Below are positions 3,777 through 53,018 of a stretch of DNA of 64,000 nt, piece after piece (position 1 is the stretch's first letter; each line of letters starts with the position of its first letter). Source of the stretch: a virus. The notes under the pieces were generated by a model that saw only the letters and a program-made list of their open reading frames with translations, did not search any database and was not told where the DNA came from. The position numbers were made by a program, and so were the translations under genes. The DNA is taken from the IMG/VR virus record IMGVR_UViG_3300030004_000009, positions 96,001 through 160,000 of that record; one strand, given 5' to 3'.

Positions 3777-4933
3777 ATTTCTGTAACGCTATTAAAATCC
3801 ATTTCTACAAACTTATCAAAACCACGTAATTTATGATAAGATACACGTTTAAGTAAGTTTACAAACTCATCATAACCTGTTTTAATCCACTTATTACCAA
3901 CTTTAAAAGCATGACTCATGTGAGGTTTGTTAGTTTCCACTACAATCACATTAACAACGAATTTCCAGCTATTGTCAACTCCATGTACATGTTCAACGTA
4001 TTTCTTTAACATAAAGAGATATTGGGCGAATTGGCGATAATAATGATATGACTGAAACGATCCTTTCTCAAAGACATTGTAAGTATCGCCATTAACGTCA
4101 GTACGTTGTGTTGTGATACCAGGAAAAGTATTAAGTGGCTTTCCAGTAGTCTTTAAGTCATTAAGTGTTACTATTTTCCTTGTAAAATCTATAGACCAAT
4201 TATCAATTTTAGCCTTAAGTTTTAACCTTATAACTTCATTAAATAGAGGATCATCAAACTCTTCATTTGGAATAGAAGCTACAAACTCCATTATCATAAC
4301 ATCCTCATGATAGCTTACAATATCAACAGCTTCTCTGCAACCTAAATCATCTTCAATATAAGGTGGTGGAAAAAGCAGATCCATTAAGAGCTTGTTATGC
4401 TTTACACTACTGAGACAACCATCAAGTTTCTCTTTCTGTAATTCAGTAAGAACTATAGCTCCAGGTTGTTCATCCTGTATCTTTAAGAACTCAAGATACT
4501 CTTGACCTTTAGAAAGTACATCATCGTACTTCTTTTGAGTCATTTTGCCTTTATAGTAATCCTCTTCTTCACAAGCCATTGTGAGTGCAATTTGTTCACT
4601 ATAACCTTCATTTTTATATTTATAAAGTAAGTCACATATAGCACCTACTTTACCTGATGGTTTATCTACAGGACTAAGGAAATATTTATCTTTTTCAAGT
4701 ATCATCTGATGTACTGCGGATCCAAGTTCTAAAGCTGGAGATTTAGAGTCACTAGAGAAACCTTCAAGGAATCTTGTTGGTGCTCCCCCTTCTTCTGGAT
4801 TAATTAGCTTAAGTTGAGAATTACTTATAAAGTCACGATAGGCTGAGCCAAAGTATTCTTCATCGGGTACATTCTCAAGTCTAGTAGCAGTATCTGTTAA
4901 GAATTCAATTTGTATTTTACTTAAGTCGTACAA
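3773..4933 (-). CDS. PD-(D/E)XK exonuclease (RecE/ExoVIII-like)
   Basis: ISNSQL, LELGSAVH, KAKIDN, DLKTT and YHYYRQFAQY motifs. Confidence 0.8.
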   Translation of the reverse strand: MYDLSKIQIEFLTDTATRLENVPDEEYFGSAYRDFISNSQLKLINPEEGGAPTRFLEGFSSDSKSPALELGSAVHQMILEKDKYFLSPVDKPSGKVGAICDLLYKYKNEGYSEQIALTMACEEEDYYKGKMTQKKYDDVLSKGQEYLEFLKIQDEQPGAIVLTELQKEKLDGCLSSVKHNKLLMDLLFPPPYIEDDLGCREAVDIVSYHEDVMIMEFVASIPNEEFDDPLFNEVIRLKLKAKIDNWSIDFTRKIVTLNDLKTTGKPLNTFPGITTQRTDVNGDTYNVFEKGSFQSYHYYRQFAQYLFMLKKYVEHVHGVDNSWKFVVNVIVVETNKPHMSHAFKVGNKWIKTGYDEFVNLLKRVSYHKLRGFDKFVEMDFNSVTEI

Positions 4934-5098
4934 TTAATCTTCGTCTTCATCGTCAAAGTTATCATAATCTTCATCCATTACACGATCAAGAAATTCCTCC
5001 CAATCTTTGTCATCGTTATCATCCCAACCTTCTTCGAATGGATCAGTCGCTACATCCCTCTCAAATTGTTGTTTTGCTTTCAAATCTGTCTTACTCAT
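4934..5098 (-). CDS. Very acidic 54-aa protein (below the ORF-track cutoff)
   Basis: Translated by hand: MSKTDLKAKQQFERDVATDPFEEGWDDNDDKDWEEFLDRVMDEDYDNFDDEDED; fills the gap. Confidence 0.6.
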   Translation of the reverse strand: MSKTDLKAKQQFERDVATDPFEEGWDDNDDKDWEEFLDRVMDEDYDNFDDEDED

Positions 5099-5104
5099 AT
5101 TGAT

Positions 5105-5305
5105 TTATTTACCCATAGCAACCTTAAGAGAGCTCTTAGCTGTTTCAAGTTCACTTATCTGGTCTGAACATATCTCATACTCTTTTTTGTAATTCTTAAG
5201 CTCAGCCTCAGCTTCATCAACTTTATCTTCTAATTGTTCTCCTAATCCATAAAGTTCTTCTAGTGCTGTTTCAACTAGATCAAGTGCGTCTTGTAATTCG
5301 TCCAT
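5105..5305 (-). CDS. Small acidic helical protein
   Basis: 66-aa E/D-rich ORF with heptad pattern. Confidence 0.6.
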   Translation of the reverse strand: MDELQDALDLVETALEELYGLGEQLEDKVDEAEAELKNYKKEYEICSDQISELETAKSSLKVAMGK

Positions 5306-5309
5306 TTTC

Positions 5310-5474
5310 TTATTGCCATTGTTTTATTAACTCTAAAGCATCTTCTAAATCTTCTTTCTCATCGCTATATTTCATATATAAATCACTATCTTCCTCATCA
5401 AGATCATTAATTAGATCATTAAGTTCAAATAAGCGATCGCTTAAACAATCATAAGCTAAACTTACTGCTGTCAT
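5310..5474 (-). CDS. Small acidic protein, 54 aa (not in ORF track)
   Basis: MTAVSLAYDCLSDRLFEL...EDLEDALELIKQWQ; ATGA overlap with the upstream gene. Confidence 0.6.
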   Translation of the reverse strand: MTAVSLAYDCLSDRLFELNDLINDLDEEDSDLYMKYSDEKEDLEDALELIKQWQ

Positions 5475-5638
5475 TTATAATCTTTTAGATAGTTTAATGC
5501 TGTTTTTAAATCTGCAACTTCATTTTCATATTCAATAGCCTCTTCACCATCTTGATAATCAGTCATATCAACTAATTGTTGTGCAAATTTTACTCGTTCT
5601 TCTATAAGATCTATAGCTTGTTTAATTAAGTAACCCAT
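5471..5638 (-). CDS. Small acidic protein, 55 aa (not in ORF track)
   Basis: MGYLIKQAIDLIEERV...EVADLKTALNYLKDYK; TAATG coupling. Confidence 0.6.
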   Translation of the reverse strand: MGYLIKQAIDLIEERVKFAQQLVDMTDYQDGEEAIEYENEVADLKTALNYLKDYK

Positions 5639-5814
5639 TAGTAAATATTACTTAAAGTTTCCTCTAAATTAGCAATCTCATCTAAATCTCCAAGTAAGTC
5701 TTGAATGCTTTCATCTTTCTCATGCCTCTCAGCAGTAATTATTATACGTTTATAAACTCCGTCTTTAGCTGTCTTTACTATATCACTTATAGCATCAATA
5801 TATTTCTGTTCCAT
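5638..5814 (-). CDS. Small acidic protein, paralogue of 5987..6184
   Basis: MEQKYIDAISDIVKTAK vs KEQYEDAINNVLKIAR; ATG at 5814 is coupled to the upstream TAA. Confidence 0.6.
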   Translation of the reverse strand: MEQKYIDAISDIVKTAKDGVYKRIIITAERHEKDESIQDLLGDLDEIANLEETLSNIY

Positions 5815-5990
5815 TATACCCAATTATTTAGAAGCCTTACTACTTCAGTTAAATCATCTATTTCTTCTTCAACATTACCCCATTGATCTCCATCTGGATC
5901 GGTTTGCTCATTATATCCCTCTTGTTCTTCTTTAAGAATATAAATACGTCCTCTTAATTGATCAATTATACTTTTAATTTGATAGCTCAT
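5814..5990 (-). CDS. Small acidic protein, 58 aa (not in ORF track)
   Basis: MSYQIKSIIDQLRGRI...EEIDDLTEVVRLLNNWV; overlaps the upstream stop. Confidence 0.6.
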   Translation of the reverse strand: MSYQIKSIIDQLRGRIYILKEEQEGYNEQTDPDGDQWGNVEEEIDDLTEVVRLLNNWV

Positions 5991-6184
5991 ATAACATCAT
6001 TCATTCGTCTTATAATATCTTGATAATCATCAAGTGTACGTATATCTTCAATTAAGCCTTGTACATCATCAATATCGAGTTCTTCTCTTTGAACTACATA
6101 AACTATCGAATTATAAAGAGCATTTCTAGCTATTTTCAAAACATTATTAATAGCATCTTCATATTGTTCTTTTTCGTCCATCAC
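5987..6184 (-). CDS. Small acidic protein
   Basis: 65-aa ORF, paralogue of 5638..5814. Confidence 0.6.
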   Translation of the reverse strand: MMDEKEQYEDAINNVLKIARNALYNSIVYVVQREELDIDDVQGLIEDIRTLDDYQDIIRRMNDVI

Positions 6185-33227: not shown

Positions 33228-34768
33228 TTATGAAATAGTATCGTTATTCCACGATACATGACTAAAATGAGGATTAATAATCCTCCAATTGCTGCCAACT
33301 CTGGAAGAGCTATAACAGTAATTATACAACCCACTATGGAAAGTATAACTGATATAAAGAACATAGTTCTCATACATTGACTAATTTGTAATAGCTTACA
33401 CCATTACTGATTTCTGGCCCTTCTGCAACTAATAAATCGAATCGAGGCTGAGCTGCTTCAGCTACCTCTTTTGAAACAATATATAGTTTCTGAAAATTTG
33501 GGTCAGGATATGGTAATCCTTCTACTTTACTATACTCTCTACGATAGATGATTGTCATATCAATATCTACTTTCCGCTTAAGGGTAATGTTACAACGAGC
33601 ATGTCCGTTAAAAGTGAGTACTTTATACCCTAATCCGCTGTCTACTGTTATGCTACTTCCTGTGTAATTAAGGATTTGCATACGTTTTAAAATTTAAATT
33701 AACCTACTTTACTTTCGATTGGTTTCCTTATATCCCTAACATTCTCATTTTGAGAATCTGTAGGATAACTATAACCAAGTCTTTTATTCTCTTCTTCAAT
33801 AAAATTAAATAAGTCTTCTAAACAGTTATAAACTGACTGTAAATACTTATAATTTGTTGAAGTTAAACTTTTACCAGGATCTTCCGGGCCTTTTCCTGGC
33901 TCACAAAAATTAAGTTTTGTGATTACCCCATTAATGAGTGTTACCTCAAATTTGCCCTCATTGTGCCATTCAAGGCTGTTTTTTATCTCTCTATGATGTT
34001 CCATTTTTAATTGTTAATTGTTAATAAAAATAGAGGTTACACCTTGCGTTTGTCCCTCTATTAACCTAAACCTAAAATTACTATAAATTGTAACAGGTGT
34101 TACAAAGTCTTTAATCATAGACTACAAAATATGAGTCTAATAGTTGTTTACTCTTTGGAAGTTGTTTATATTTTATATTGTTACCTTTAGGAACTATTGT
34201 CTCAATCACATGAACCATGTGTTTAGTTGTTTGTCCTAATAAGTGATAATCATACATTACTTTAACTGCTGTATTTCTATTTGAAGTTGAAAATTGTTCA
34301 TCTACATTATACAAAATTTGCAGTAACTTATCTTCAAATGGATCAAGTGTCGCTTTTTCAGTTGTTTGTATGTTGCTATCACCTTTTTTATTATAATCCT
34401 GACTACTAATGGTTGAGATTAATTTAGGTAGACTAGCATTTAAAGTGTTAAGTGCATAAGTTGAGTTATACTTTGAAAGTTTATCTAATACAGGAATATC
34501 AAGTTTGATATTCTCAAGTAGTATTGTTTCGTTTATATAAATGTTCTGTAATGCTGCTAACTGTTTCTCTGTAATACTTCTGAACTTATAAAGATAAGTT
34601 AGAAGATCGATAGTAAACTCTTTAATAGATTGTGCTTTATTTGAATATAGAATACATGCAATCTTTAATAAGATCCATGCATTACTTCTATTTTTATTTT
34701 GAATGTCTTTAAGAGTATATCTTTTTGGGCGTGTTATTGTTTCCATAATGTTTATTTGATTTTAGTAA

Positions 34769-35270
34769 AGCTAAGGGCTGGTAATCGCAACCGCCGAGAA
34801 ATAAATTAACACTTAAGTAATACATTTAGGTGAAACTCACTTAAGTTAAATCAATCATTCAATCTCTGTTTAGAATTCTTATTTCTCTACCTGACTGGTC
34901 TGTGTCTTAGCTATTTCTTTAAACTTACTTGTAAAGCATTCTGGTTGCCGCACTCTGAGTGCTAAGTTAGCTCAGTTGACAAATTCCATCTTATTTAACC
35001 CGTCTCCTGGCGGTATGGGTACTTTACCTATAAGTTTTGTAGCCTACAGAGATTTGATACTCCACCTTCGTCTGATGATTTTTTGTAGACGACGCACTCA
35101 ATTATGCTAATAGGCTATGTTAATACTATCTTTGTTTCATGGCAATTTCCTTTAATAGTAATCACAATTGTAGATCTCCTACAACATCATACGATAGTAA
35201 TTCTTTAGCTAACGCGCCCTCTCGTTAGCAATTTTAATAACTGTATATATAAGTGTAACTGTTACACCTA
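34769..35270 (-). ncRNA. Run of closed structured RNA domains
   Basis: Terminal stems at 34769-34912, 34921-35037, 35039-35118, 35124-35199 and 35208-35229; no ORF in track. Confidence 0.45.
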
Positions 35271-35308
35271 ATAATATAAGCAATAAAGTTCCCATAAATT
35301 AGACGTTA

Positions 35309-35692
35309 TCATTCCAAAGCTTTTAACCTAGCTTCAATTTCCTCAACCGTAAGATCATTAAGCTTATCCTCATGTCTCTTAGCTAGGAGTTCCTTAAGTT
35401 TAGTTGCCTCTTGTTGTTTGACAGTCTTAGCTAACTTATCATTAGCTTCAGCTTGTTTAGTTTCAACAATGAACTTTAGGATATCAAGCTTGATATCAAG
35501 TTCAGTATTGGCACTTGTTTTCTTCTCTAAGAGTGATTTCTTAGAGGTTTTATCTTTTTCATCGCTTAATACTATATAAATAGCATCTAAGCTTGTAAGA
35601 GATAGACTCCACAAATCTTCTGTTGTAAGAAGACCTTTAGAGGAAGCAAAGCGTAATTTCTCACGCGATGCTGTAATAAATAATTGTTCCAT
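35309..35692 (-). CDS. Conserved phage protein, partner of 35696..37753
   Basis: LF..ASR.KLRF.S.KG.LT.EDLW.L.L..LD; helical. Confidence 0.65.
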   Translation of the reverse strand: MEQLFITASREKLRFASSKGLLTTEDLWSLSLTSLDAIYIVLSDEKDKTSKKSLLEKKTSANTELDIKLDILKFIVETKQAEANDKLAKTVKQQEATKLKELLAKRHEDKLNDLTVEEIEARLKALE

Positions 35693-35695
35693 GAT

Positions 35696-37753
35696 TTAAA
35701 AGTTGATTTTTAAGTTACGTTTGAAAGATCCTGAGACCCTTGCTATAATTGTATTCTGTTGTGTTTCAGAGAAGCCTACACCTGATAACTGGTGTTCATT
35801 AAATTGTATTTTAAGTTTAGAAGCCATCACTTCGAGAACCTTACGATTCTCGTTAAGTTTATTATTTAAAAACTCATTGTAAAATGGCCGTACTTCCTCG
35901 TTATTTACCGCTCCTTCAAGTATAAAGATGAAATGTTTATTACCAGTTTTAAGGGTATTTTCCCAATGGTTTGGAGATAACATAATACTTTTCACTTTAG
36001 TAAAGATATTAGTCTTTACTCCCCATTTCTCTTTAGAAGAAATATTCGAGTTAGTTGGTAATGATGGTTTGATAGTAAAGACACCTTGGTTAAGATTTAC
36101 CACTGCAATATCCATTCTACCTAACACACGTGTGTTATGATGAAAGTTATATATCTCACCATTAAACTCAACTTGTGCTTTAAAACCTGTATTCATTAAA
36201 CCATTATAGTTAACGATAGATAGTTTATAATTACCATCCTTCATCATATTGATATTGCTCCAGGTAATATTTTCAACTCTTACTTCTGGTTCATTAGAAT
36301 GACCCCTCATATCAACATCAAGATTACCAGACATGCTTGATTTACTAATTCCTTTATAAGAACTATAATAAATCTCAGTACCATTAGGTTCAATAGCGTG
36401 AGCATCAAAGTCAGGAGTTCCTTTAGTATCTTCATCATTCCATTGAATTGAAAATCTTAAGACACCACTAACATCACCACCAGCAGACTTTACACGCTCT
36501 TTCATTGAGTCAGCAATTCCACCAACATAAGACCATGAAAATGGATTGTCCCATTTAAACATTGATGGTGATTTAGGATTAACTGCTGTAATTAAACTAA
36601 TAAGGTTACTAAAGTGTGGCTGTTCAAGTAGAAGTTCAATAGTCTTAGCAGTTGGTACTACTTCTGTAAGGAACTTCTCAATTGTAATTTCTTCAACTTT
36701 CGATAAAGTCTTAGGATTAACCAAACTTGTTTTCTGTAAGTCACCAAAAATGTCACTTACCTCAGTACTACGATCTGTAAAGACAATATCATTAACACTT
36801 ATGTCAGTTGATACTGCAAAACGCCGATCAAGAGATTCAAGATAACCAAGCTCCTCTATTTTCTTCTTTGCTTCTTCTATCATTCGAGGAGTAATAGCTG
36901 CAGTCGGTCTTTTGTAGTTCGTAGGTGCAACCTTCTTCTCATAACGTGGCAAAGCGTCATCAATCTCAATACCAACACTTAAATCTTCAAGGAATGTACC
37001 GATAACTGAACCTCTTATGTTGTTAAGATAAGGAGTTTTAAGTGAGTTTATCCATACAAACTCATCTTTACCGGTAGTTAATTGGTCGTATGACCTTTTA
37101 AGAAGTAAGAATGCTTTTACCATCTCTACAAATTCAGCACCACGATAAAGTGAACCCTGTTTTGTAAGCTCAATCATTGTTTCAAGTGAATCAATAGTAA
37201 ACTCATCAAGTGCACGCTTAAGTGTTTGCTTACCTGTACGAAGGATACCTGCTTTTGAATCACGATCTTTCGCAGCTGTTAACGGTACATTACCAAGTTC
37301 TAACGAGAAATGCTGCCAATAAATCTTCTTTTCAGGATCAAAGTTCTTAGGTGTACCAACGATTCTTGACTCAGGAAGAAATACATCTGTAATTGGAAGT
37401 GATTCAATATAATCATTAACTAATGATATACTGTTCTCATACTCTTCTTCTATACCTCCAATGTTAAAATACCATAAACCTTGAGATTTATAGTTTTTGT
37501 CAATAAAACAGATACCGCTAAATTGACGTAAGAATGACTTACAACAATTACAGTTATTAGACTGTCTTATTACATCATTTTCAAACCCACTTAAGTAGAG
37601 TTCATACACTTTTTCTCGATCAACATTCTTATAAAAGATATGTTGCTCACCTTTAGCAAGCTGATTGTAGCGTTGCTGGACTAAATTTTTAACTTCACTA
37701 AACATAATTTGATCTTTTACAGGCGCACAATACCTGATTTGTTTAAAATACAA
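35696..37753 (-). CDS. Large conserved phage protein with CNCC motif and YfaP/DUF2135-like domain
   Basis: NCNCCKSF; LRFSIQWND..DFDAH..EPNG..IYY...LDVD...VENITW; start possibly at MFSEV. Confidence 0.65.
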   Translation of the reverse strand: MYFKQIRYCAPVKDQIMFSEVKNLVQQRYNQLAKGEQHIFYKNVDREKVYELYLSGFENDVIRQSNNCNCCKSFLRQFSGICFIDKNYKSQGLWYFNIGGIEEEYENSISLVNDYIESLPITDVFLPESRIVGTPKNFDPEKKIYWQHFSLELGNVPLTAAKDRDSKAGILRTGKQTLKRALDEFTIDSLETMIELTKQGSLYRGAEFVEMVKAFLLLKRSYDQLTTGKDEFVWINSLKTPYLNNIRGSVIGTFLEDLSVGIEIDDALPRYEKKVAPTNYKRPTAAITPRMIEEAKKKIEELGYLESLDRRFAVSTDISVNDIVFTDRSTEVSDIFGDLQKTSLVNPKTLSKVEEITIEKFLTEVVPTAKTIELLLEQPHFSNLISLITAVNPKSPSMFKWDNPFSWSYVGGIADSMKERVKSAGGDVSGVLRFSIQWNDEDTKGTPDFDAHAIEPNGTEIYYSSYKGISKSSMSGNLDVDMRGHSNEPEVRVENITWSNINMMKDGNYKLSIVNYNGLMNTGFKAQVEFNGEIYNFHHNTRVLGRMDIAVVNLNQGVFTIKPSLPTNSNISSKEKWGVKTNIFTKVKSIMLSPNHWENTLKTGNKHFIFILEGAVNNEEVRPFYNEFLNNKLNENRKVLEVMASKLKIQFNEHQLSGVGFSETQQNTIIARVSGSFKRNLKINF

Positions 37754-37778: not shown

Positions 37779-37880
37779 TGTATGCAGAAGGATACGATCC
37801 TTCGATCCCGTGAGGAAGGAGTAACTTATGAACTCGTCAATTGTTAACTCGTACGGTGCCCAACACCGCCTTGCGATACA
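37779..37880 (-). ncRNA. tRNA-like element with tRNA-Sec-like architecture
   Basis: 8-bp bulged acceptor TGTAT(C)GCA/TGCATACA, 6-bp D stem GCGGTG/CACCGT, variable hairpin, GAAGG-ATCGTAT-CCTTC T arm; abnormal anticodon arm. Confidence 0.55.
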
Positions 37881-38066
37881 TTTAATAAGTAGTAGTTATA
37901 CAGTAGAAACACCGATCAGCATTTAGATTATAAGTGAGCAGGATACTGATCCTCGAGGAATTTACCAGCTTCAGAGACTCATAACCAGCATTACCTTGTA
38001 CTTAGATTAACGGCTACTTAGCTATTACTACTGCTTTCCTACTATTTCTTTTTGATTGTTTTGAAG

Positions 38067-38483
38067 TGGAGTGTATGGGATTCGAACCCATGTCTTACTC
38101 ATCATTATAAAGCTTTCTACATGTTTAACTCAATTTTTATCGATAGTAGAGTTCCATCTATTTAGTTTTACATTCTAACAAATGTTTAAAAGCTTCTATT
38201 ACATTGCAGCTTAAATTAACTTTACATATTCCGCGTTTGGCCATAATTGTATGTTCAACTATCTGATTACACAGCCTAAGATCAGTATACTTTAACCCCA
38301 GATTAAGGGTCCACTATAACACTTTGTGTTAAGCTGCAATCCTCATAGAGGAAGTCCGGCTTGTCATGGAGATAACTTTACAGTTGCCATTTGAAATTTT
38401 GAAAGTTCTATTTAAAGTGGTCTCCTCACAACCCACTACATGCTTACTTTACTCTGTACGAGCAATCAATACCTGCACACCCC
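38067..38483 (-). ncRNA. ssrA: tmRNA; tag peptide (A)GNCKVISMTSRTSSMRIAA at 38388-38329
   Basis: GGGGTGT/ACACTCC-A acceptor with G3-U70; ATGGG-TTCGAAT-CCCAT T arm; TATTGA D-loop; resume context TCAAAT-GGC; tag ends IAA-stop. Confidence 0.92.
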
Positions 38484-41400
38484 ATGTAGTTTAAAAGTAA
38501 CCACTTATACCAGTGGTTGTTGGTCCGTTTCTTATTCTAACCGTAGAAAGTAATCATCAACGAGTTTCCCATTATATTTATAATTCTCAGTTGGGTCTGG
38601 CCAGTAGCTTACTGGATAGCGCATGCAGCTTCTTTTTAAATCATCACATATTCTCCATCAGGTCCTCTAACTGGAATATAATTAGACTGCTCTTTAGGTT
38701 CTTCAAGTAACTCTGGAAACACTTCTTCTAACCATTCGTTAAAGTACTCTCTATCAATACTAAGAGGATAAACTTCTTTACCTGCTTCTCTTGATATGCC
38801 TTTCATGTAAGCCTCCCACATTGCAGTTCTTATTTCTTCATTCGTCATACTTACTTTGCTTTATCATTTGTTTGTATAAACTTTCAAACTTTATTCTCCT
38901 AACTTCTAACCATTGTGAATACTCTTGTTCTTCATTGAGTTTACCATTAGAACCAGCTTGATAAAATTGCCACATAAGTTCTTTTAAAACCTCTCCTATT
39001 TCTATCATTTGTTATTTCATAAAAGGTTTAAAGATCTCTACCATTAACCATACATAAAGCACTGACACCAACAGTTTGAAAACAGTAATTACCACTATTT
39101 CTTTTATTTTGTTGTTAGGCTGTTTCATTTCTATAATTTTTAAACCATTCATCAAAATATTTAGTGACATCTCCAGTAGTATCAGTGACTAACTTTAAAC
39201 CTGCTTTATAAGCTTCTCGTAATAGCTCTATATACTCTAAATCTGAAACTTTGTAAACCTCATTGTAAAGATCAACAGGTATAAAATAAGCTGATAAACC
39301 TATCTCATCATGACCTTCAAGTTCCATACCAAGTATACATTCATTAAAGCGCTCGTGTTCCATGAAATCCTGACTTTCAGGCCATAGAACTAATTTATAT
39401 GTATTTGACATTTTTTGTTTTAATTAATAGTTAAAGAGCATCTTACATAACAGAATACCTATTAAAATATCTTTTATGGCTCATTATGACGGATAGCTCT
39501 TTAACTTGATTTATAGTAAACTTAAAAATAAGGGTCATCATTCACTGAATAAATATCGTCAATTGGGAATTCTTCACCTGTTGTAGCAATTGCTACTATC
39601 TCTCCATCAAGACCTAAGTGACAGCTATTAAATAGTAAAGGATAGTCAAAATGAAAGACAATTAGTTTATCACCTTCTTGTAATATCATCTCAACATCTC
39701 CTGTTCTATGTAGCTTAAAGCTACAGGTTTTGAAGTTGGTTGAATGTCATGAAAGCTAACTGTACAATTAGTCAGTTTTGAAGCATGATGTACAAACTGG
39801 TCTTTAGAGAGCTTTTCGTGTTGTTCTTCGCTTATGGTGAACACTTTGTTTCCATAAGCAGGAATGATAAAATATAACATGATCTCATTTATTTGGTTTT
39901 AAGTTTAATTAATAGTTTAATTAGGTAATTCAACCCAGAATTTCTTATTACAATTAGGACAATGATATTGTACAAAGTCACCATCAGCAACTCCACCACC
40001 TTTACCGTAGTCTTCATCTATTTCAATAGCATCTGGATGTTGCCATCTTCCTTGTTGTTCTTTATTCCAAGGATTTTCTTTAGTACATATTTGTCTTTCC
40101 ATTAGTGTTTTAGCTGATGGCTCAACAAGGAATTTGTTTACTGCCTGGTTTAATAAAAGCACCTGCTGGTATACCAGGTTTACCATTCATTGCGTTATAG
40201 TTACCCATCTTAGATGCTAACTTACGTTCTGCTTTCTTACGTCTACTTGATTTGCTCATTGTATAAAGTTAAAGTAATGTTGTTTAAGTTTATTTTTGGT
40301 TTCGTTCGATAACTCCGGTAAATGTAATAGGTTATTTAGGAAGATTTCAGGGTGTTTAGCATTACTCAAGAAGTAAACTAAATCATCCTCCATATCTTCA
40401 TCTATTACTTCTCTCATTCCACCACATTCTTGAGGATGTGCACAATGCCTTAGACCTTGTCTCTGACATGTACTACAATAGTGAAATTTCATTGTTTTTA
40501 AGTTAAGATTCCGTCGTGTATTACTTTGTCGTTATAGGTAACTCTTACCCTATCAGCGTACTGATTGAAGCTACAATATTTACCAAATCGTTCTACTGCT
40601 TCATCTTCAACACATTCAATATATCCCCAACTCTTATGATGTATGTAAGGGTAGTGTTGAATGTCCCAGTAATCAAGGATATGACGGTCATCCCGTTTTA
40701 AAAAACTACTAGGTTGACCAAAAGCTTTAATACAAGCTTCTTTAGTATTCCAGTACCAAGTAACACTGATACTAGGTAGCTTATCCCAATTAGGATGAGA
40801 ATCTTCAAACTCTTTTAAAGTGTATGCACCTGGATAATCATTATCTTTACCCCAAAAATTAATTTCTTGATCCTCAAATTCAGGACGAATTATCCAAGCA
40901 CACTTCTTAGAATGCCAATCAGTTATAGGTACTCCATCAGAATACTGATGTTGTCCATCCATTGAGTTAATGTGTACTTTCATTTAGTGTTTTGGATTAA
41001 AAGCTATAAGGTTAATAGTGCTTTTTTAAATTCTCTTTTGAACACAGTTTGTAAATCTAAACTATCTTCTCCTTCTTGTAGAATATCTGGTAATGAAGTG
41101 CCTTTTGGTACAGCTAAAATTACTTTTATTAATACATTAGGTATTTTTTGACTGTGGTAATCACCTTGTTGAACATGTTTAGTATGTCTACGTTCTTTCA
41201 TTTGGATTTCATAACTACGTTTAGTTAAAAACGATTGTACTTCTTCAATAGTGAAACTAGTTTCACTATTGACATAGCGATCTAGATAATAATCTTTACC
41301 TCTATCTTCACCAAAGTGTTCTCTGTATTGTTCTCTTGTTATCATGATTAGTTTTAATTAAAGGTGAAGCATGTTTCTCATGCCATTATAAAGATCAGGA

Positions 41401-43670: not shown

Positions 43671-44699
43671 TATTATTTGGGTTTTAAATTTTAAAGATAA
43701 AGAACTCGTGTGATTGTTTCCAACCAAATCCATCTGCCTTGACCCAGTTAGATTCCTGTTATTTCACTGGCACGAGTATATTGTTAATTAAGACCACTTA
43801 TTAGACGTTCTTCAAGGTTTTCGTCTATAATGATTACATTTTTATATGCATCGATAGTCTCCAATTGTTTAATAAAAGAATTCCAATTATCAATACGCAT
43901 TACTGTTACACCTGTATTTAACTTTTGTGAAGCATACCTTGCAATATCGTAATCAATTTTATTACCTGTAGTAATAAGAAGTAGGTTTTGTTTACTTCTT
44001 TCAACTAGTTCAATACCTTCGAGGTATTTAGTGTATAGTATACATCTATCGCCATCTTTATTAAAATATTGAATTGCTGCTGAGGTTTCAGTTAACTCAG
44101 TAAGAACACCTCTTATTATTTCTCCAACAAAGGATGCTTTGACTATATCTCCTACTTTAAGAGCTTCGTCGTTTTGGTTTTCTGTCATGATTTATAATTG
44201 TTTTGTTTGGTTACTTGATTTGAAACTCCTTGAAGACCGAGACTATAAGAGAGTCTATCTAAGAGTTAATTAACTATTGATTATCATTGATTTTTTATTT
44301 AATAAAGAACGATTTACAGTCTCAATATCATTAAGGAGTGAGGCATCACCCTCACTCCAAACCAAATAACAGTTAGAATCTAGGGTTCTAACTACCGATC
44401 ATGAGAAACAGTGAATACGTTACAGATGCGACCTGTGTAACTCCTGATAGTACGTATTAGTGCTATTAGTCAGCTCCTTGATGACTTTTATTGTGATTTA
44501 CCGGTCTGAATTTCTTTTTTTCTTTTTGTTTCTTATTTGCATATTCTGTTTTTAATTCGTCTGTTGTCATGTCACGATGAGTTGTACCTTGTACTTTTGT
44601 TTCATCTTTCTTATTACTTGCCATTGTGTATTTTGTATTAAACTGTAATTGGAAGAATATGCATAGACAAACTCCCTGGCTTTTTGTTTTATTACAGTT

Positions 44700-46115
44700 A
44701 GACAAGAGATAAGGATCTGAGCCTATACACCTAAAGTGTCTCTTGTGGAAAGTTACGCATTGTTACGTACCCTTCTTCTACTCATTCCAATAGCCACCAC
44801 TATGATAGCTATAATAGGCAAGAGTTGTGCTGTTAGTCCAATCCATAACATTGTAGTGTTTTTGAGATTAATAGATTTATCATTATCTCAGACTTTAGCG
44901 TGAGATGTTAGTTTAATTGCTGTCCTTTAAAGACATTTAAATACCTAAGTATACAATCTATCACCTTATTAATGATAAATGAGCTACTATAGTTTCTTCA
45001 GGATTTGGTATAAACATATTACTTGCTCAAGGTAATATAAAAGTCCCCATTGTTAGCTCCTGATTGCTTCATTTGTCTTTTGAGTACAAGGCCCAGTTCT
45101 ACATTTTTACAAATGATTATAAAGGTGAGAGTTTGCAACCTCTTTTCCTACTGTAGAATGGCACACACTTAATGTAAATGAGAGAAGCTAGGTCTCAGCG
45201 GCCTAGCTATTACAACGATAAACTCTCATTTTTTAATATTATGAAGCACTCTGTTATAGCTTATTACTAAGACTAATACACTATGAATCATAATTTTTTA
45301 ACAGGAATAGTTTACTCACCTGTTGATGCTTGGACACTCTCAAGCTTTGTCTTAGTGGGTTCTTTCAATGTATTACTACATCGTGAAATCTTATAAAGAT
45401 CTATCACACACCTCATACTTGGATACAAGGTTGTTCATTTATAGCACTCCAAGATACTACTTATTGAACTAACTACACTGAGACCCTAGATTCTATCTCA
45501 CATTCGGATTATTAGGTATTGTAGTTATATTTTAAAAACAGAGCTCATGACGAAAACCCGGCGTAGTAAACTACAGTCATGGTAACATATCTCTATATAA
45601 TTCGAAGCGGTTTTGCACTCTGTTTAAATTTTCAAACTCAAAGCTCTTATTTAAGTACTATACAGCTAGACGTATACATAGCTTTTATTTGTATAGGTTC
45701 TGTTCTCTGAACAACCGCCATTACTTAAATAGCTTTCTTTGAGTTATATTTTAATATAATTACTCGTTCTAAATAACTGTTGAATAAATCCTTCCTGATC
45801 TACTGCTTACTTCAATTATTGACGAGTAATTATATTTTTTAATCTTTGATACCTTTTAAGTAGTAAATGTAACGTGGAGGTGTTAGTAATTTCTTATATG
45901 TATAAATTTTTTAAAGCTCCAACTACGTACGTAGCCTTGCTAGTACGAATAACGCTGTCCTAATAAAAGTTAGGAGCCTATGGGATTCTGCTACTGTTTA
46001 CCCCACCATTTTACTGGAAACCCCGGTTATCCTTTTGGCCCGGAAGGTCAGCTTTAGGTTATCAACCCTACATTTAGACTAAGCAAGCCTAGTCGGAGAT
46101 AAGCCCGACTCGTAT
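44700..46115 (-). ncRNA. 1.4-kb ORF-free tandem array of closed hairpin/multistem domains
   Basis: Terminal stems at 44702-44746, 45177-45230, 45470-45527, 45536-45625, 45635-45745 and 45753-45836 (15 bp perfect), plus a GC-rich multistem at 45913-46112. Confidence 0.5.
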
Positions 46116-46420
46116 CTTATATGCACTCAAATAAGTTGTCTAGCCATTTATGATCTTTGATATCTAGTGCATGTTGTTTTAATACCTGTTCTTTCTCTTC
46201 TTCACTTGACCATGTAAGTAATTGTGATGCAGGATTTGGTGTTCCAGCATAGATGTCTAAAGCTATCATAAATGGTAACTCTTTTGATCTGCATAATTCT
46301 TTGATGGTTTCATTATGATGATACGCTTTGTATAGAATTACAATACCTCGTTTACCTTCTGTCTTGATCTCTAATGCATCTGCTATTTCTGTGTTCATGA
46401 CTATTTGGTTTAAATGTAAG

Positions 46421-46494
46421 TATAGTGTATGGGACTTGAACCCATGATCTTCACATTGAAAATGTGACGTCTTAACCAGCTTGACCAACACTAC
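46421..46494 (-). tRNA. tRNA-Glu(TTC)
   Basis: GTAGTGT/ACACTAT acceptor; TCACA-TTTTCAA-TGTGA; ATGGG-TTCAAGT-CCCAT. Confidence 0.88.
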
Positions 46495-46543
46495 ATGACT
46501 TGCCCTCCTTATTAAAAGGTGAAACTAGTATAAAGATTTAAAG

Positions 46544-46631
46544 TAAACCATATGCAATTCGAATGCAAACCTCCTTTCGACGTCGTTACAGGTGTTCTCT
46601 GACTGAGTAGCCAGCTTAAACTAATGGTTTA
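46544..46631 (-). ncRNA. tRNA-like element with remodelled D and anticodon arms
   Basis: TAAACCAT/ATGGTTTA acceptor, TGCA-TTCGAAT-TGCA T arm, extra CTGGCT/AGTCAG hairpin in the D loop. Confidence 0.55.
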
Positions 46632-47102
46632 ATTGTACAGTAGTACAATGTGGTTTTGGCCCAACATTTAGTTGTAGGCACTTTGTTTTTCATGTTACTT
46701 GATTTTATTGCCACTCTCTTCCTTTTATTAATGCAATACCTAACGGTTTTGAATCTACTACAAATTGCCATGTGTAATCTGTAACCATCCATAACTTATC
46801 ACACGTTAAATCATAAGAACAAAATGTAAGTCCATTTGAAGTAGCTTTATAATTATAAAGCTTCCATCTTATTTGATCTTTATCTCTAACTAATTGTGTT
46901 AATTTATAGATTATTTGGTTATAAACCACGTTATCAATTTGTATTGTGTTGCGTTTAATTTCAGTACTATATGTTGGTTCTGCTCTACTCATCTTCTTTT
47001 GAGGAAGTTGTAAGCCCTCGAACTGTTCATTAATTGGCCATAAAACAAATAGAAAAACGCTTTGATTAATTAGTGGTTTTTTCATGTTATTTAGTTTTAC
47101 AT

Positions 47103-47161
47103 TTAGCTGATGGCTCTTAGCTGATGGCTCTTAGCTGATGGCTCTTAGCTGATGGCTCTTA
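47103..47161. repeat. Four perfect tandem copies of TTAGCTGATGGCTC (14 bp)
   Basis: Read directly; a single further copy at 40110-40123. Confidence 0.95.
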
Positions 47162-47166
47162 AAGTA

Positions 47167-47192
47167 AGGAGTTAGTATTGCTACTAACTCCT
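47167..47192 (-). terminator. GCAA-tetraloop hairpin (terminator or processing site); relatives at 49135-49160, 51226-51251, 51784-51815
   Basis: 11-14-bp stems all capped by TA-GCAA-TA on minus. Confidence 0.6.
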
Positions 47193-47573
47193 AATTGAAT
47201 GAAAAGATAATAAAAGAAATAAACTATAATAGTGATTGTAATGTTTGAAAGTTTAATTAAATATTTTGTTTGACGTGTTTTACGTTCTAAAATCATTTAT
47301 TAATCTTCCTGTAACGCTACAATTCGTTATAGGCTAATAAAGAGGAGTAAACTCTCTACCGTAACTTGACCTTTACTCTTCATTAGTTAATTATAAATGC
47401 TACCTTTATTACTCTGTTGAGTATAATTAAGCCGTGTCGCTATATGCTATCCTGTGACTCATTTATAATTAAATATTTAGTGATCGTAACATTTGTATTA
47501 AGGTTACAATTCGTTATAGAATCAGTAACTAAGATAGTTCCCACTATTCTTTCTAACTTAGTTAACAAACGGT

Positions 47574-47649
47574 TGGTTACACATTATGGATTTGAACCAC
47601 AATCAAGAGAACCAAAATCTCCTATCCTAGCCAGTTGGACGAATGTGCA
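47574..47649 (-). tRNA. tRNA-Gln(TTG)
   Basis: TGCACAT/ATGTGTA-A-CCA; GGAGA-TTTTGGT-TCTCT; GGTTCAAATCC. Confidence 0.9.
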
Positions 47650-50339
47650 ATTTAACTTTAAGAATAATATAATTACTGCTTATGAGGATTAAGGTAATAC
47701 TCATAAGCTACCACCAGCCATCCATCTCAAGTACCCACATGTGACCATCCTTAAGGTTTTACATATAGTAATCTTGGTTCCTCACTATACTATTCTTTTA
47801 ACTTAGAATTGCTATTATGATTCCTATTACTAAAAAAAGTAAAAAGATTAATAGACATTCTTTGAATGTTTGTGGATCAGGGTAAGTCGTCATCTTCTAT
47901 AAGTTTTTTAATTAAATATCGAATAGTTAAACCTGTTCCTACTATAAGTACAGCTAATGTACCTAGAATGTAATAAAATATTTCCATTGACTTTGTTTTT
48001 AATGGTTATCGTAGCCATTATAATAAATCCATGCTTTTAGACATAGAATACAAGTATAAACAAGTGCTACGATTAATAAAAGATAGATCATACTTTGTTT
48101 TGATAATTTGTGATTGTAAATGGTTTAATGACCGATTTAATTGAAGGGAGTTGCTGTTCGTTTTGAAGTAGAGTGATGAAAGCAGCTTGTGTCTTTAAAT
48201 CTTTGAATTCTTGTTCTTTAAGGTCTCCTTGATAAACTCTTAAAGTTTCTCTTGGAAGTATGATTAAAGTATAAATATTCATAATATTTGGTGACCATTT
48301 CCCTGTCATCACTCTACCTAAAACTGTTGTAATTTGCATTTTAAAAATGTTGCTCACTGTTACCAGGATAATTATAGTTATCAGAAGGTAAAGCATCACT
48401 ACCGTCAAATGTTCCAATAGGTTCAACTACTGGAACTTCATCATCAATCCAATTTTTTAGGTATTGTAATTTACTGATTGTTAAAGGCTGAATGATAAAG
48501 TTATCAGGTAATATTGATGGAATTAAAGGTTGACCAATCTCGTCTTCATCGAGATTGTAAGTTACGAACTCTGGTGTTTGTAAAGCTTCAGGTAAACCTA
48601 ACCATTCAGGTAAGTCACCACCATGAAACCAGAAGGCTTCAAGAATAGTTATTACACTGTGTTTGACAAGTGGTTCGTTAATTTCCTCTTTGATTTCTTC
48701 GACGCCCTCAATACTTGTGTGTAATGCATCAAGTCCTTGATTGACATACGTGTCAATTAAAGCTTGAAATTTTGGTGTGTAAAGTCTGATTATTCTCATG
48801 ATTTTGGTTTTAAGTTTGTTGTTTTATAACCACTTTGGTGGATTTCCTGGTAATTTACTTGCTAAATATTTGAATAGTAAACGAACTAAATATCCTAATA
48901 CAAATATCCAAGAAGATAAAGCTATTATTAAAGTTAATAGTATATCATCCCAAGTCCACTCTGTACTTATAGATTTTATAAAAATCCGCTTAACTAATTT
49001 GTAGGCTATAACATAACCTATAAAGTATATTGCTGTTAATATCATAACTTAACTGTTTAATAATAAGATGAATAAGATGAATAACAATAAAGCTATCCAT
49101 TCAATTTTGTTTAGTTTCATAATGTTTAAATTAAGGAGTTTAGTATTGCTACTAAACTCCAGCTGTTGATTTGATTTCGCACTTCAAATGTTCTTACTGC
49201 TCTTTAGGTAATTTAAGAGTTTTCCTATAATCCTCTATAATTATTGTATAAATAGATGGTGGATAATAAAAACCTTCACTATTAATGTGGAGCTCGTCGC
49301 CTTGTTTAAATACAGTATCTATGTCTAAGGGGATATAGACAGGAGTAACATCTCCAGCTTTTGCATTTATTGGTGAGTTTAACCATTTTCCTCTATAGAC
49401 TTTATAAGTTATAGAGTCAGAGGTTGAAGCCACATATGTTCCTGAATAACAGGATTGAAAGCTTAATGCGATTAAGCTGATGAATAAAATAATTGTTGTT
49501 TTCATGATTATTTGGTTTTTATGTTGATTATTTGATTTCTTTAGAATAAACATACGCTTGCTACTTACTTTTACATGAACGTGTACACATTATGTTAATA
49601 ACCTAAATAGTGTTGATACTGCTTTATAAATGGAAACCCATTTTGTAGAACTATACCTGCAATTAAGCAAGGCTACAAGAATATTTTTCGTATGTTTAGT
49701 TTTTAAAGCTCAACCTTTGCTATAAAAGGTTGAGCCGAGTGTTGTATTACCATCTTTAATATTTCACCACCGTTAAAGACCTTGTCCAAACAGAATGGTA
49801 TTGATGATTTGTAAGCTGGCATGATTAGTCTTTTAGCTCCTCAAATCCTATTCCTTTTACAAGATAGAATTTGTCATCGTCTTGGATAACATCTCCTACT
49901 GATGTACTACGTACTCCTGGATTCCATTCTTCATCCAGATTCTGTGATTTCTTAAATGCTTCATCTAATGATGTTGCATTAACAAAACCTACATACTTAC
50001 GTGGTTGACTTTTGGTTTCAGTAAACTTTAAAGGACCAGTTGCATGATGAATGTGAAATTGTCCTTCTTCCTCCTGAACAGGTGGAAATAACTCTTGCCA
50101 TTCTTCATCTATAATACCTGTAAGGTAGAACTCTCTTAAATCTTGTGGCAAATTACTGAAAGCGTCTTGAAGATGAGCACCTTTTTCATAGGCTGCGATT
50201 TGTTCTTGTGTAATAGGAAGATCTATTGTCCTCTCTATTCCACTGTACTGTGAAACTCGTGTTATATTCATGATGATTATTTGGTTACTTTTTAATAACA
50301 GGAATAGCTTCTTCACCTGTATATAGATATACCTTCTAC

Positions 50340-51224
50340 GCGTGCGACTTAATGAGATATCCTTTGTGTAGTTTCAACACTTCTCCCTGCTAGGGTTGTT
50401 TAGATTTAAGGGAATAGTTTTCTCACCCTTTATATTACCACTCATCAGGATTCATAGCCTGTGGTAACTTTGCATACTCTTTCAATGCTCTAACTTGTTT
50501 TGTGTGGATAGTTATTTAAGGTTTTCTCTATCCCAGCAACCAGGCTTCTACTATTTTTGATTTCAGTGGTTCAGCTTATTCCCACTTCTTCTTGTTTCTC
50601 GTTATTTGCTTTCATTGGTACAAGTCAATTAAGCTCAACAATTTGTCCTTCATTGTGTTAGTCTTCCCTCTTGGACTACAGAGTGTAATTAAACGCACCG
50701 TCTCCGATTTACACGGATCATAACAACTATCTTATAAATTGCTGTTATAATGGCTCAAGGTCGCTTAGTTGTCTTTTAAACAACATAACTGATGCGTATT
50801 TTTGGCCTTTGCACTACACTTCTTAGCCTGTGTTAGGGTGAGATTGATTACTCACTTGGTCGCTGGCCCAGCTGTTTACTGGCTTTTTAACTGATTGGTT
50901 AAATAATACATGCATTAGCTAACTTGAAAAGAGTTAGCGGTGATTAATAAATGTCTCACAACATTAATGGCTGTTCATAAACTAGCTTAATTAGAGCAAA
51001 TGAGTCGAGATTCGAACTCAATGAAACGTGATAGTTAAATAAAAAACGATGTATGAACTATGGAAACAAAAACTCTTAACTATCTATTCCTTTCCTACCT
51101 CATTTAATTAAACACTAAACTATGTATAATTCCTGCCAACGGAAGCTATTATCACCAACAATTGCCGGCAAAGTCCGCACGCCGTATTAATGGACTTACA
51201 AATTATACTATAGTTTAGTGTTTA
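50340..51224 (-). ncRNA. ~0.9-kb ORF-free cluster of structured elements
   Basis: Includes a tRNA-like element at 50998-51105 and a three-way junction at 51109-51224 with a 15-bp perfect basal stem. Confidence 0.5.
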
Positions 51225-52514
51225 AAGAGTTAGATATTGCTATCTAACTCTGTGTTTGTTATTCAATGATTTCACCTAACAACCACTCGCGAATGTCAAG
51301 AAGTAAGAACTTCTGAGCAATGTAAGTGTCTGGATTAAAGTTACCAATTCGGTGATTTGGATTTGTCTCAATCCTTTCTGCATTTGCTTTCTCTTTACCC
51401 GATTCTTCATCACGTTCTTCTTCACAATGTTTCATTCTTGCTTCAAGCCATTTGCGCATTAACATGACTTCAACACGGTTGAGTTCAATGTGAAACATAG
51501 CTTCGTCTTTAATGTCGTAATACGCCTTTTCAAGTGCATAATGACTTAATTTACGAAAGAGAGTGTTTGCTTCATCACTTGTTAGTTTATGATGAAAGAC
51601 GCCAAGTAAGATTTGCCTTACTGAAAACAATGACAATGTGAAGAGTGCTGAAATGTTGAAATTTACGTATCTAGGTTCGTTAACGGTTTGTACGTTTGAG
51701 GTTTTAAAGCCTGTTAATGGGATGTTTGATGTGTTCATGATCTTTGATTATTTGGTTTTTATGATTATTTGGTTTCTTTTTAATTGAGAGTTTAATATTG
51801 CTATTAAACTCTCAAGTGTTAATGTTTGTTTTCTGTGATCATAAAGTCATAAGAGTTTCTTGTATTACCTACACTAAATTCCATATAACCATACTCACAA
51901 TTCTTGTCTCTGTATTCCTGATTCCCTACTAAATGGTCTTTAGACCATTCTTTAAAATCTTCTTCGTTGACAATCTTAGTATCTTCTGTGTATACTAAAA
52001 GAATTTCTTTCTTGTGTGTTTCAGAAGAACTTGTATGAGGTCTCATTAATATTAATTTACCTTCTAATACAACTTTGTTGCTTTTGTTCATAATGTAAAA
52101 GTACATGATCTTTGATGTTTTTAATATGATGTTATTTGGTTATTTGGTTATTTACTCTTTTGGATATTAACACTCCCTTACTCCTATTTTATTTAAACAA
52201 TTGTTTAAAACAACTTTTAATAGTCTGAAAGGTGATTTGTGGTTTTATTTTCATTCATCGTAATATTACGATTGATCGAAAAATGATCATTTTTGAACGA
52301 AATTGAGCACTTAAATTTACACCACCAAGTTAAAAATAGACTTAGTTCCGTTTTTAGACTAATGGAGTGGATGTGTACTACAAGCTTGTATTTGATCTAC
52401 GAGATTCTCGTAATTGAAAATAACCGCTATGTCGATCGACTATTCCATTCATTTCAATTACAAAATTAACACTCTCAAGTCCATACTAGACATGAGAGTA
52501 AGAAAAGAGAAAGC

Positions 52515-52949
52515 TTACACTTTCTCTTTTCTTTTAGCTGGTTGTTTAACTTCATTTGGATCTATTTCAACATATACCCATTTGTCCTCACCCTCTTTTG
52601 CATCATGTTTCCATGTTGCTTTATGAGTTCTTTTCCATTCTTCATACTGTTCAAATGTCATATCTACAGCTCGATTAGTTGTAGGTTCACTGTGTATCAT
52701 TGTAGTATAGCCGTTATAGTTCTTTATAACAATTATAAATAATGGGACATCAAGTTCGATAACAGAGTAAAGTTTATCTGAATGTTTATAGAAAGGTTCA
52801 GTTCTAACATTTGCAGCTGATGCTTTATTTAAAGCACCTTGAATTACATGATTTGCACCAACTGTAACATTTAATGATAATACCTGAGGCATATCTATTA
52901 CATTAAAAGAGAAAGCATGTACTGGATCAATAACTAGTAATATCTTCAT
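52515..52949 (-). CDS. Hypothetical early protein; start 20 nt downstream of the hammerhead cleavage site
   Basis: ATG at 52949 after AACCAAATAATCAACATC; the track start lies inside the ribozyme. Confidence 0.6.
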   Translation of the reverse strand: MKILLVIDPVHAFSFNVIDMPQVLSLNVTVGANHVIQGALNKASAANVRTEPFYKHSDKLYSVIELDVPLFIIVIKNYNGYTTMIHSEPTTNRAVDMTFEQYEEWKRTHKATWKHDAKEGEDKWVYVEIDPNEVKQPAKRKEKV

Positions 52950-52963
52950 GATGTTGATTATTT

Positions 52964-53018
52964 GGTTAAGACACAAACTGTGTTTCGGCTATTCTTTTTT
53001 AAGCCTCATCAGTTAACC
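52964..53018 (-). ncRNA. Type I hammerhead ribozyme
   Basis: GGUUAA-CUGAUGA-GGCU(11nt)AGCC-GAA-ACACA(GUU)UGUGU-C|UUAACC: complete core and three stems. Confidence 0.88.

Follow-up and report, generated by a model that had tools for sequence, protein, structure and literature searches.

Does a long stretch of phage DNA that holds no genes, in a genome otherwise densely packed with them, have a role as RNA, a role as DNA, or no role at all? The question arises for positions 44706-46116 of a 64,000-nucleotide window, the whole stretch of DNA under study, which corresponds to bases 96001-160000 of the 176,703-base IMG/VR record IMGVR_UViG_3300030004_000009 (all positions below are those of the window). 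The source genome is that of a peat crAss-like phage, and the ORF-free stretch lies within its early region. CrAss-like phages rank with the most abundant phages that are known. An injected RNA polymerase, with poorly understood signals, drives their early programme. With the strongest inverted-repeat signal of the 177-kb genome, an orphan block of 1.4 kb lends itself to the question of RNA versus DNA roles and of what these roles are; coming from a single uncultured genome and having no homologues that we could find, it must be regarded as a lead, not as a discovery.

Genomic context of the ORF-free region

The best named relatives of the DNA polymerase of this phage belong to gut crAss-like phages (approximately 37% identity). 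The minus strand of the window carries genes from about 54 kb down to position 1, the strand-switch is at about 54.1 kb, and the ORF-free region is situated inside the early unit, approximately 8-9.5 kb from the strand-switch. The block between about 24 and 52 kb contains many small orphan ORFs, tRNA-Gln, tRNA-Glu and the tmRNA (38064-38483); the co-directional genes, the two tRNAs and the tmRNA share the strand that is the gene-sense (minus) side of the region. From 46.4 to 53 kb, nine ORFs have the leader AACCAAATAATC, or a variant of it with one mismatch, directly 5' of their start. On the basis of the analogy with phage phi14:2 (see Discussion), we infer that the block of about 24-52 kb is the early region and that the injected virion RNA polymerase transcribes it.

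Bacteroidota host-type promoters (TTTG N17-21 TAnnTTTG) were found on the minus strand only below approximately 14 kb, and on the plus strand only above 54.2 kb. The -7 motif TAnnTTTG is depleted on the minus strand between approximately 24 and 52 kb (0-1 per 4 kb). Inside the ORF-free region there is neither a TAnnTTTG host-type promoter nor a minus-strand terminator; promoter-like or terminator-like sites do not occur there beyond chance, and promoters or terminators of the individual modules described below could be discarded on the same grounds. Because the flanking genes are co-directional, host-type promoters are absent from about 28 kb of the minus strand and there is no minus-strand terminator, the region is probably transcribed, within a long early RNA, together with the flanking early genes. 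With no host-type promoter inside, a depleted -7 motif and no terminator, the downstream genes seem to need read-through; the transcript would enter the region from upstream, after tRNA-Glu and the 93-aa ORF.

Absence of coding sequence

An earlier note on this DNA had described 1.4 kb without an ORF of at least 60 aa. This was correct, there is none in 44706-46116, and no other gap of this kind in the 176,703-base record is as long. No frame opens in the stretch when TAG is read as Q or TGA as W, and TAA=Q opens short chance frames only; recoded genes are ruled out, since none of the three reassignments gives a real frame. Coding potential was estimated with a codon-usage log-odds score trained on the long genes of the phage (120-nt windows, best frame, both strands). 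None of the 44 windows in the region was coding-like, in any frame or on either strand, as against 44-100% in the neighbouring small genes, and the score was positive for the neighbouring ORFs, the 53-aa and 93-aa ones included. A tblastn search with all proteins of the phage itself detected no remnant in the region; score and search together rule out small or decayed genes.

Tiny genes are frequent among early phage genes, the region does contain minus-strand ORFs of 32, 38 and 39 aa, and in a direct reading of the sequence an AGGAG-N7-AUG at about 45050 was seen to open a frame of seven codons. However, the minus-strand ORFs of at least 30 aa span less than one quarter of the stretch, the early-gene leader AACCAAATAATC was not found inside it, and the recoding and codon-usage results speak in the same direction, thus we consider hidden coding, whether by very small proteins or by recoded or frameshifted genes, to be very improbable. 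The stretch is a truly non-coding element, statistically unusual and of uncertain nature.

Inverted repeats and predicted folding

The features of the region and of its immediate surroundings are collected in Table 1. Between positions 44501 and 46116 there are eight perfect inverted repeats with arms of at least 9 bp, 20-130 nt apart, whereas 1.0±0.98 are expected by chance; the chance level was derived from 1000 dinucleotide shuffles, among which the maximum was five and none reached eight. With arms of at least 8 bp the count is 14, as compared with 3.9±1.9 in shuffles. The genome mean is 1.2±1.2 repeats per 1.4 kb, and among 877 genome windows the top four in repeat density all overlap the region.

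Table 1. Positions of features in and around the ORF-free region (z, predicted folding compared with shuffled sequence)
Feature	Position	Strand	Description
53-aa lysine-rich ORF	44466..44626	-	Coding-like score; bounds the non-coding stretch downstream
10-bp perfect inverted repeat	44538..44663		Arms lie on either side of the 53-aa ORF's start codon (44626-44624)
9-bp perfect inverted repeat around 41 nt	44641..44699		Just upstream of the small ORF
ORF-free non-coding region	44706..46116		No denser cluster of long-range perfect inverted repeats elsewhere in the genome
11-bp perfect inverted repeat around 84 nt	44875..44980
Three-part repeat	45126..45231		45220-45231 pairs (9 bp, perfect) with 45176-45184 or 45126-45134
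Module A	45470..45527		8-bp closing stem 45470-45477/45520-45527; z -0.03 minus, -0.5 plus
Boundary 13-mer AGTTATATTTTAA	45523..45535, 45742-45754	plus	Two exact copies; variant at 45826-45838
Module B	45536..45625		8-bp closing stem 45536-45543/45618-45625; z -1.1 minus, -1.0 plus
Module C	45635..45745		9-bp stem 45635-45643/45737-45745 and nested 10-bp stem 45648-45657/45722-45731, around 64 nt
Module D	45753..45836		15-bp perfect stem 45753-45767/45822-45836 around 54 nt
GC-enriched block	45905..46116		G+C 0.47-0.48 (genome 0.31-0.33); directly after the stop of the 93-aa ORF
93-aa early ORF	46117..46398	-	Leader AACCAAATAGTC directly before the ATG
tRNA-Glu(UUC)	46421..46494	-	Directly upstream of the 93-aa ORF

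The terminal stems that the earlier note had named, among them the perfect one of 15 bp, are all present in the sequence. Modules A-D abut, with A/U-rich linkers of 7-10 nt between them. The resemblance that had been seen between three linkers could also be confirmed: the 13-mer AGTTATATTTTAA occurs in two exact copies and one variant, each at the edge of module A, C or D. In the three-part repeat the alternative 9-bp stems are mutually exclusive.

The whole region folds better than shuffled sequence on both strands (z -3.9 minus, -3.4 plus), while the values of five coding controls were between -0.1 and -2.3. The proposal that the region is tiled by individually closed domains was not borne out, such tiling being common to any sequence: its MFE fold contains 11 closed domains (counted if at least 50 nt long with a dG of -15 or lower) as compared with 8.2±1.2 in shuffles, and these cover 1016 nt as compared with 977 nt. 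When the modules were folded separately, C and D did beat their shuffles, but A, B and the GC-rich block did not. Module C had z scores of -3.2 (minus) and -4.8 (plus), with an interior that folds no better than shuffles; Module D had -7.2 (minus) and -5.8 (plus), with -2.2 and +0.4, respectively, for its interior. The minus-strand RNA of Module D is predicted to form a near-continuous long hairpin (15 bp, 8 bp and 8 bp), and its three inner G·U pairs can exist only in the minus-strand RNA. The predicted fold of the GC-enriched block equals that of shuffles (z -0.19).

Other types of pairing gave no comparable signal. The interiors of the seven repeat-bounded modules fold like shuffles (mean z -0.12 minus, +0.09 plus), and short-loop hairpins are not enriched (2 observed, 2.35 in shuffles). 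On the gene-sense strand there is no enrichment of helices that tolerate G·U (4 vs. 6.2); on the plus strand there are 13 as compared with 8.8, a number that 15 of 150 shuffles reach, and three of the perfect stems can be extended by G·U pairs on the plus strand only. There is no G·U asymmetry that would assign a strand. As only perfect Watson-Crick repeats exceed chance, the signal is a cluster of strand-symmetric perfect long-range repeats around ordinary sequence, and the region does not consist of RNA domains with compact folds.

These results bear on the model put forward in the earlier note, a polycistronic cassette cut into many small RNAs, each acting on a host defence or RNA-binding protein as decoy or sponge. 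The abutting modules with their short A/U-rich linkers, the motif common to three boundaries, the folding of Modules C and D, which is far better than that of shuffles, and the location in an early region beside tRNA genes are what such a cassette might look like. However, the folds of Modules A and B and of the GC-rich block are at the level of shuffles, an outcome that the earlier note itself had named as a refutation and that applies to this part of the array; the interiors are unstructured, the modules have no promoter or terminator of their own, and there is no likeness to tRNA, to CRISPR repeats or to any Rfam family (see below). The cassette is a narrower version of the RNA reading presented in the Discussion, lacks specific support of its own, and appears improbable to us.

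Comparison with known RNA families and DNA elements

Comparison with Rfam did not provide an identity for the modules: no family matched the region at gathering thresholds or at E up to 10, and there was no match for the GC-enriched block 45905-46116. The sole hit, RAGATH-12 at 44393-44468 (17.8 bits, gathering threshold 75, E = 1.8), lies outside the region, and a search of the whole window at E up to 1 found no further family. The tRNA model RF00005 found nothing in 44300-46300 at E up to 10; applied to the whole genome with the same limit, it detected only the four true tRNAs, which are all that this genome has, and the T-arm of the tmRNA. There is no T-loop motif in the region. Relaxed ARAGORN settings do give hits there, and likewise on both strands elsewhere. 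A tRNA graveyard was rejected: the tRNA model is silent, and the tRNA arrays of the relatives are located at non-homologous positions, so the region does not represent such an array in decay. The tmRNA model RF00023 had no match in 44300-46300, and large phage RNAs (GOLLD, ROOL), ribozymes, riboswitches and CRISPR repeats were discarded because Rfam gave no match. No hammerhead-type core is present inside the region, the only CUGAUGA...GAAAC is at 52982-53012.

Mobile elements were considered as well. The modules are not MITEs, each of them is single-copy in the genome, absent from the phage database and without a consistent flanking target duplication. An integron attC array was rejected after direct reading of the sequence: modules A and C end in GTTATAT, module D does not, and the AAC/GTT triplets of Module C are at the outer edge of the stem, whereas the R''/R' core sites of attC (RYYYAAC ... 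GTTRRRY) have them on the inner side of the R box. No recombinase was recognized among the 30 window proteins that were scanned, 20 of which are encoded in the flanking early region. A replication origin or a T5-type injection stop was rejected, there being no DnaA box (up to one mismatch), iterons or tandem repeats in the region.

In a wider sense the repeats might act as a cis element at the DNA level, in double-stranded or single-stranded form. They could serve as a pause or checkpoint in transcription-driven genome entry, provide the virion RNA polymerase with an entry or structure site, or be a site of binding or recombination. The fact that only perfect Watson-Crick repeats are in excess, equally good on both strands and around unstructured interiors, would suit such an element, as would the position of the region about 8-9.5 kb inside the early unit that starts at the strand-switch. 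The virion polymerase of phi14:2 transcribes denatured DNA in vitro, and no early promoter motif was found upstream of the phi14:2 transcripts. Phage T5 offers a parallel in its injection-stop region (iss), which is large, untranslated and rich in repeats, inverted repeats and palindromes, and which lies in the first-entering, early-expressed part of the genome (Davison, bioRxiv 10.1101/866236). The region studied here resembles it as a large untranslated, inverted-repeat-rich stretch in a probably early-expressed part, but T5 has eight conserved DnaA boxes and direct repeats, whereas here there are no DnaA boxes and no iterons. Further points against a DNA-level role are the spacers of 40-110 nt, which disfavour cruciform extrusion, the lack of enrichment in short-loop hairpins of the N4-promoter type, the G+C content of the region (0.35), which is above, not below, that of the typical intergenic DNA of this genome, and the lack of a counterpart in the relatives G001 and G002. 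On balance we think a DNA-level element unlikely.

Other gaps of the genome

The same layout had been claimed to recur at three other sites. This could not be upheld, one of the sites is the tmRNA and none has a comparable excess of repeats. The interval 37779-38635 contains the tmRNA (Rfam 63 bits), 34747-35308 has no repeat excess, and 50317-51258, which folds well (z -4.1), has one 16-bp repeat and no cluster. Where G+C is raised in other ORF-free gaps, these contain tRNAs (0.41) or the tmRNA (0.37). The tmRNA of the phage has a 12-bp perfect long-range stem, thus perfect stems of this kind are a feature of at least one bona fide RNA encoded here.

Relatives and homologue searches

The region is an orphan. 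It had no match in a blastn search of 50,697 phage records and no paralogue in its own genome, each module being unique; metagenome scans yielded no homologue, and none was found at loci that share the 685-aa protein. The flanking small proteins are orphans too, searches of viral contigs with them revealed no relative. For the 93-aa ORF, neither tblastn against phages nor alignment against viral contigs found a relative, and two JGI collections had none, but three variant homologues were recovered from ENA and Logan assemblies: P0001 (95% identical; ENA, 1814 nt), P0155 (ENA, 1504 nt) and P0002 (61% identical; Logan, 2383 nt). The stop of the ORF (C-terminal ...LFECI) is kept in P0001 and P0002.

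Two relatives of the phage were reached via the DNA polymerase, G001 with 52% and G002 with 47% identity. G001 is syntenic with 1-33.7 kb and 53.4-64 kb of the window. In the 33.7-37.8 kb interval G002 matches two genes (35309-37753), and between 37.8 and 53.4 kb no ORF or DNA is common to our phage and either relative. Both carry a tmRNA and 20-27 tRNAs, as compared with four here. No ORF-free gap in either exceeds 900 nt, and small ORFs take the place of such a stretch in their corresponding early region.

The absence of the region from these relatives and from the phage records would be expected if it were neutral or decaying DNA, leftover or newly acquired, in a fast-turnover early accessory region. 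The repeats would then have arisen by template-switch (quasi-palindrome) mutation under relaxed selection, and two observations fit: the stems are free of G·U pairs and mismatches, which suggests young rather than long-maintained pairings, and the module interiors look random. On the other hand, the other non-coding gaps of the genome have no repeat excess, the stretch is the largest gene-free one in a densely packed genome, it has no trace of former coding sequence, and four modules abut with 7-10-nt linkers and a motif common to three boundaries. We regard a lack of function as about as unlikely as a DNA-level role. Both the DNA-level and the neutral explanation stay alive because of the strand symmetry of the repeats, the random-like interiors and the absence of the region in relatives.

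Discussion

The explanation that we tentatively prefer, with a probability of roughly 0.4, is that the region is an untranslated part of a long leftward early transcript, whose stem-closed loops may yield stable non-coding RNA. It is consistent with the non-coding character of the stretch in every test and the lack of any remnant of the phage's own proteins, with a density of long-range perfect stems that is about eight times the chance level and the highest of the genome, and with the folding of the minus strand, which exceeds that of all five coding controls. Part of the region has a raised G+C content, as have the tRNA and tmRNA gaps; genes, tRNAs and tmRNA are co-directional with it; no internal host-type promoter or minus-strand terminator interrupts it; and the tmRNA stem is an example of long-range perfect pairing in an RNA of this phage. 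A precedent is provided by the early intergenic RNAs of phi14:2 (bioRxiv 10.1101/2020.03.07.982082). Several results do not fit so well. The excess is confined to perfect Watson-Crick repeats, the module interiors are shuffle-like and short hairpins are not enriched, and G·U-tolerant helices are not in excess on the gene-sense strand, the plus strand being slightly better. No Rfam family and no homologue was found, the relatives G001 and G002 have small ORFs in place of the region, and the phi14:2 intergenic region other than that of the tmRNA is dissimilar and shows no excess folding.

If the region is indeed transcribed by read-through, the long-range stems of 8-15 bp could close a series of loops of 40-110 nt in the RNA. 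The near-continuous duplexes of Modules C and D would be plausible cut sites for a double-strand-specific host enzyme of the RNase III type; Module D, and Module C with its 9 bp + 10 bp, approach the length of substrates of double-strand-specific nucleases. The A/U-rich linkers would be plausible sites for a host enzyme of the RNase E/Y type, which cuts single strands. What remains after such cuts might be a single stable non-coding RNA or a few of them, or else a 3' structure that protects the upstream message. As to the role of such an RNA, sponge, decoy, stabiliser and insulator are all conceivable. A more daring version would be a hitherto undescribed early RNA locus, in which unrelated loops, shut by perfect stems and joined by the A/U-rich boundary motif, are cut from the virion-polymerase transcript and offered in single-stranded form as baits to a defence factor of the host that binds or cleaves RNA; to this we give little credence.

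By analogy, the region seems to behave most like two sets of phage RNAs, the early non-coding ones of phi14:2 and the stable ones from the tRNA cluster of T4; judged from its sequence, it is a member of none of the sequence-defined families tested. The stable RNAs C and D of T4 (species 1 and 2) are two species of approximately 120-140 nt that were shown biochemically. They are similar as non-coding structured RNAs beside phage tRNA genes, cut from the same precursor, but here the stretch is 1.4 kb long and a protein gene lies between it and the nearest tRNA. GOLLD and ROOL are large ORF-free multi-stem RNAs of phages and prophages, which are often found beside tRNA genes and are defined by strong covariation over many homologues. 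The region differs from them in having unstructured interiors, no homologue that we could find and, provided that the Rfam release includes both families, no match to either, since it matches no Rfam family at E up to 10.

The comparison with the crAss-like Cellulophaga phage phi14:2, the one model phage to which RNA-seq has been applied, is closer. Its early intergenic RNAs (g004-g005 and g005-g006) were found by RNA-seq to be abundant and long-lived, above most genes in level; their function was not determined (Drobysheva et al., bioRxiv 10.1101/2020.03.07.982082). There are clear differences: a blastn comparison of our region with positions 1-6000 of the phi14:2 genome (NC_021806) gave chance-level matches only, the phi14:2 region without the tmRNA shows no excess folding (z +0.46, transcribed strand), and its RNAs were seen by RNA-seq, whereas a transcript of the region described here is a prediction. 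The likeness is one of setting. Judged by the DNA polymerase, whose best named hits are crAss-like, the two phages belong to the same order, and both have a long ORF-free stretch among co-directional small early genes. In NC_021806 this stretch is at 2905-4601, where small-ORF calls were withdrawn in 2020. In both phages, moreover, the tmRNA is located within the early block.

tmRNA and tRNA genes

Rfam finds a tmRNA in the crAss-like Cellulophaga phage phi14:2 (NC_021806) with 46 bits against a gathering score of 47 (E = 4.5e-16), and ARAGORN places a tmRNA at 4031-4500 of the same genome, with the tag GSSVQKLAMVA*. Two early lncRNAs of phi14:2 are expressed at high levels and have had no explanation; judged from its sequence, the one at the g005-g006 junction appears to be a phage tmRNA, an identity not mentioned in the text of the phi14:2 preprint (bioRxiv 10.1101/2020.03.07.982082). 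The phage studied and its two nearest relatives, G001 and G002 (78.8 and 59.7 bits, respectively), all carry a tmRNA gene in the early region, so carriage of a tmRNA seems to be conserved in this crAss-like lineage.

The phage studied (estimated completeness of the record, 86%) has only 4 tRNA genes vs. 27 and 19 in the two relatives, where they form large arrays at differing genomic positions. In G002, a stretch of about 400 nt without ORFs (G+C 0.39) comes after tRNA-Lys and tRNA-Cys and ends in a clear GC hairpin and T-tract terminator. This stretch, without Rfam match, is a candidate non-coding RNA.

Locations of the features
Feature	Location	Strand	Context
tmRNA gene	window 38064-38483	-	early region of phage studied
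tmRNA gene	G001:C1:88150-88649	-	early region of relative
tmRNA gene	G002:C1:158778-159136	+	early region of relative
tmRNA match (Rfam)	NC_021806 4031-4502	+	phi14:2
Candidate RNA	G002:C1:150714-151127 (L039:10714-11127, G002 locus)	+	after tRNA genes
Full TTTG...TAnnTTTG promoters	window 2380, 11236, 13833	-	before genes
Full TTTG...TAnnTTTG promoters	window 54257, 54971, 56251	+	before genes
TAnnTTTG-poor block	window 24000-52000	-	
Early-gene leader copies	window 46399-52967	-	early ORFs
Leader-complementary sequence	window 44335-44371	-	past 53-aa ORF
RAGATH-12 match	window 44393-44468	-	
Hammerhead-like core	window 52982-53012	-	upstream of leader and ATG
Inverted repeat, 16-bp arms	window 51108-51225		ORF-free early gap
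Inverted repeat, 13-bp arms	window 47387-47472		ORF-free early gap

Expression signals of the early block

The Bacteroidota -7 motif TAnnTTTG occurs 0-1 times per 4 kb on the minus strand of a block of about 28 kb, vs. 3-6 times elsewhere. This scarcity, together with the placement of the full promoters outside, marks the block as one that the host polymerase probably does not transcribe. The leader AACCAAATAATC is present in six exact copies and in three more with one mismatch; since it lies 0-10 nt upstream of early-ORF ATG codons, its behaviour is that of a translation leader and not of a promoter.

The minus-strand RNA of the 277-nt gap past the 53-aa ORF contains GUUAUUUGGUU, which is exactly complementary to 11 nt of the leader variant AACCAAAUAAC, a single match that is not significant alone. 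A 9-bp GC-rich hairpin (GGAGUGAGG/CCUCACUCC) follows immediately 3', and the layout looks like a small-RNA seed with a terminal hairpin. Such an RNA could pair with early leaders.

Other RNA-like features

RAGATH-12 is a motif class linked to hammerhead and twister contexts. Its weak match in the window (17.8 bits vs. a gathering score of 75, E = 1.8; 22/30 identities at the 5' end) is probably due to chance. Directly upstream of an early leader and its ATG there is a hammerhead-like core, consisting of CUGAUGA, a GGCU/AGCC stem and GAAAC, which Rfam did not report at E up to 1. Two more long inverted repeats, both perfect, lie within other ORF-free early gaps, and the stretch 50317-51258 of the window has a folding z of -4.1.
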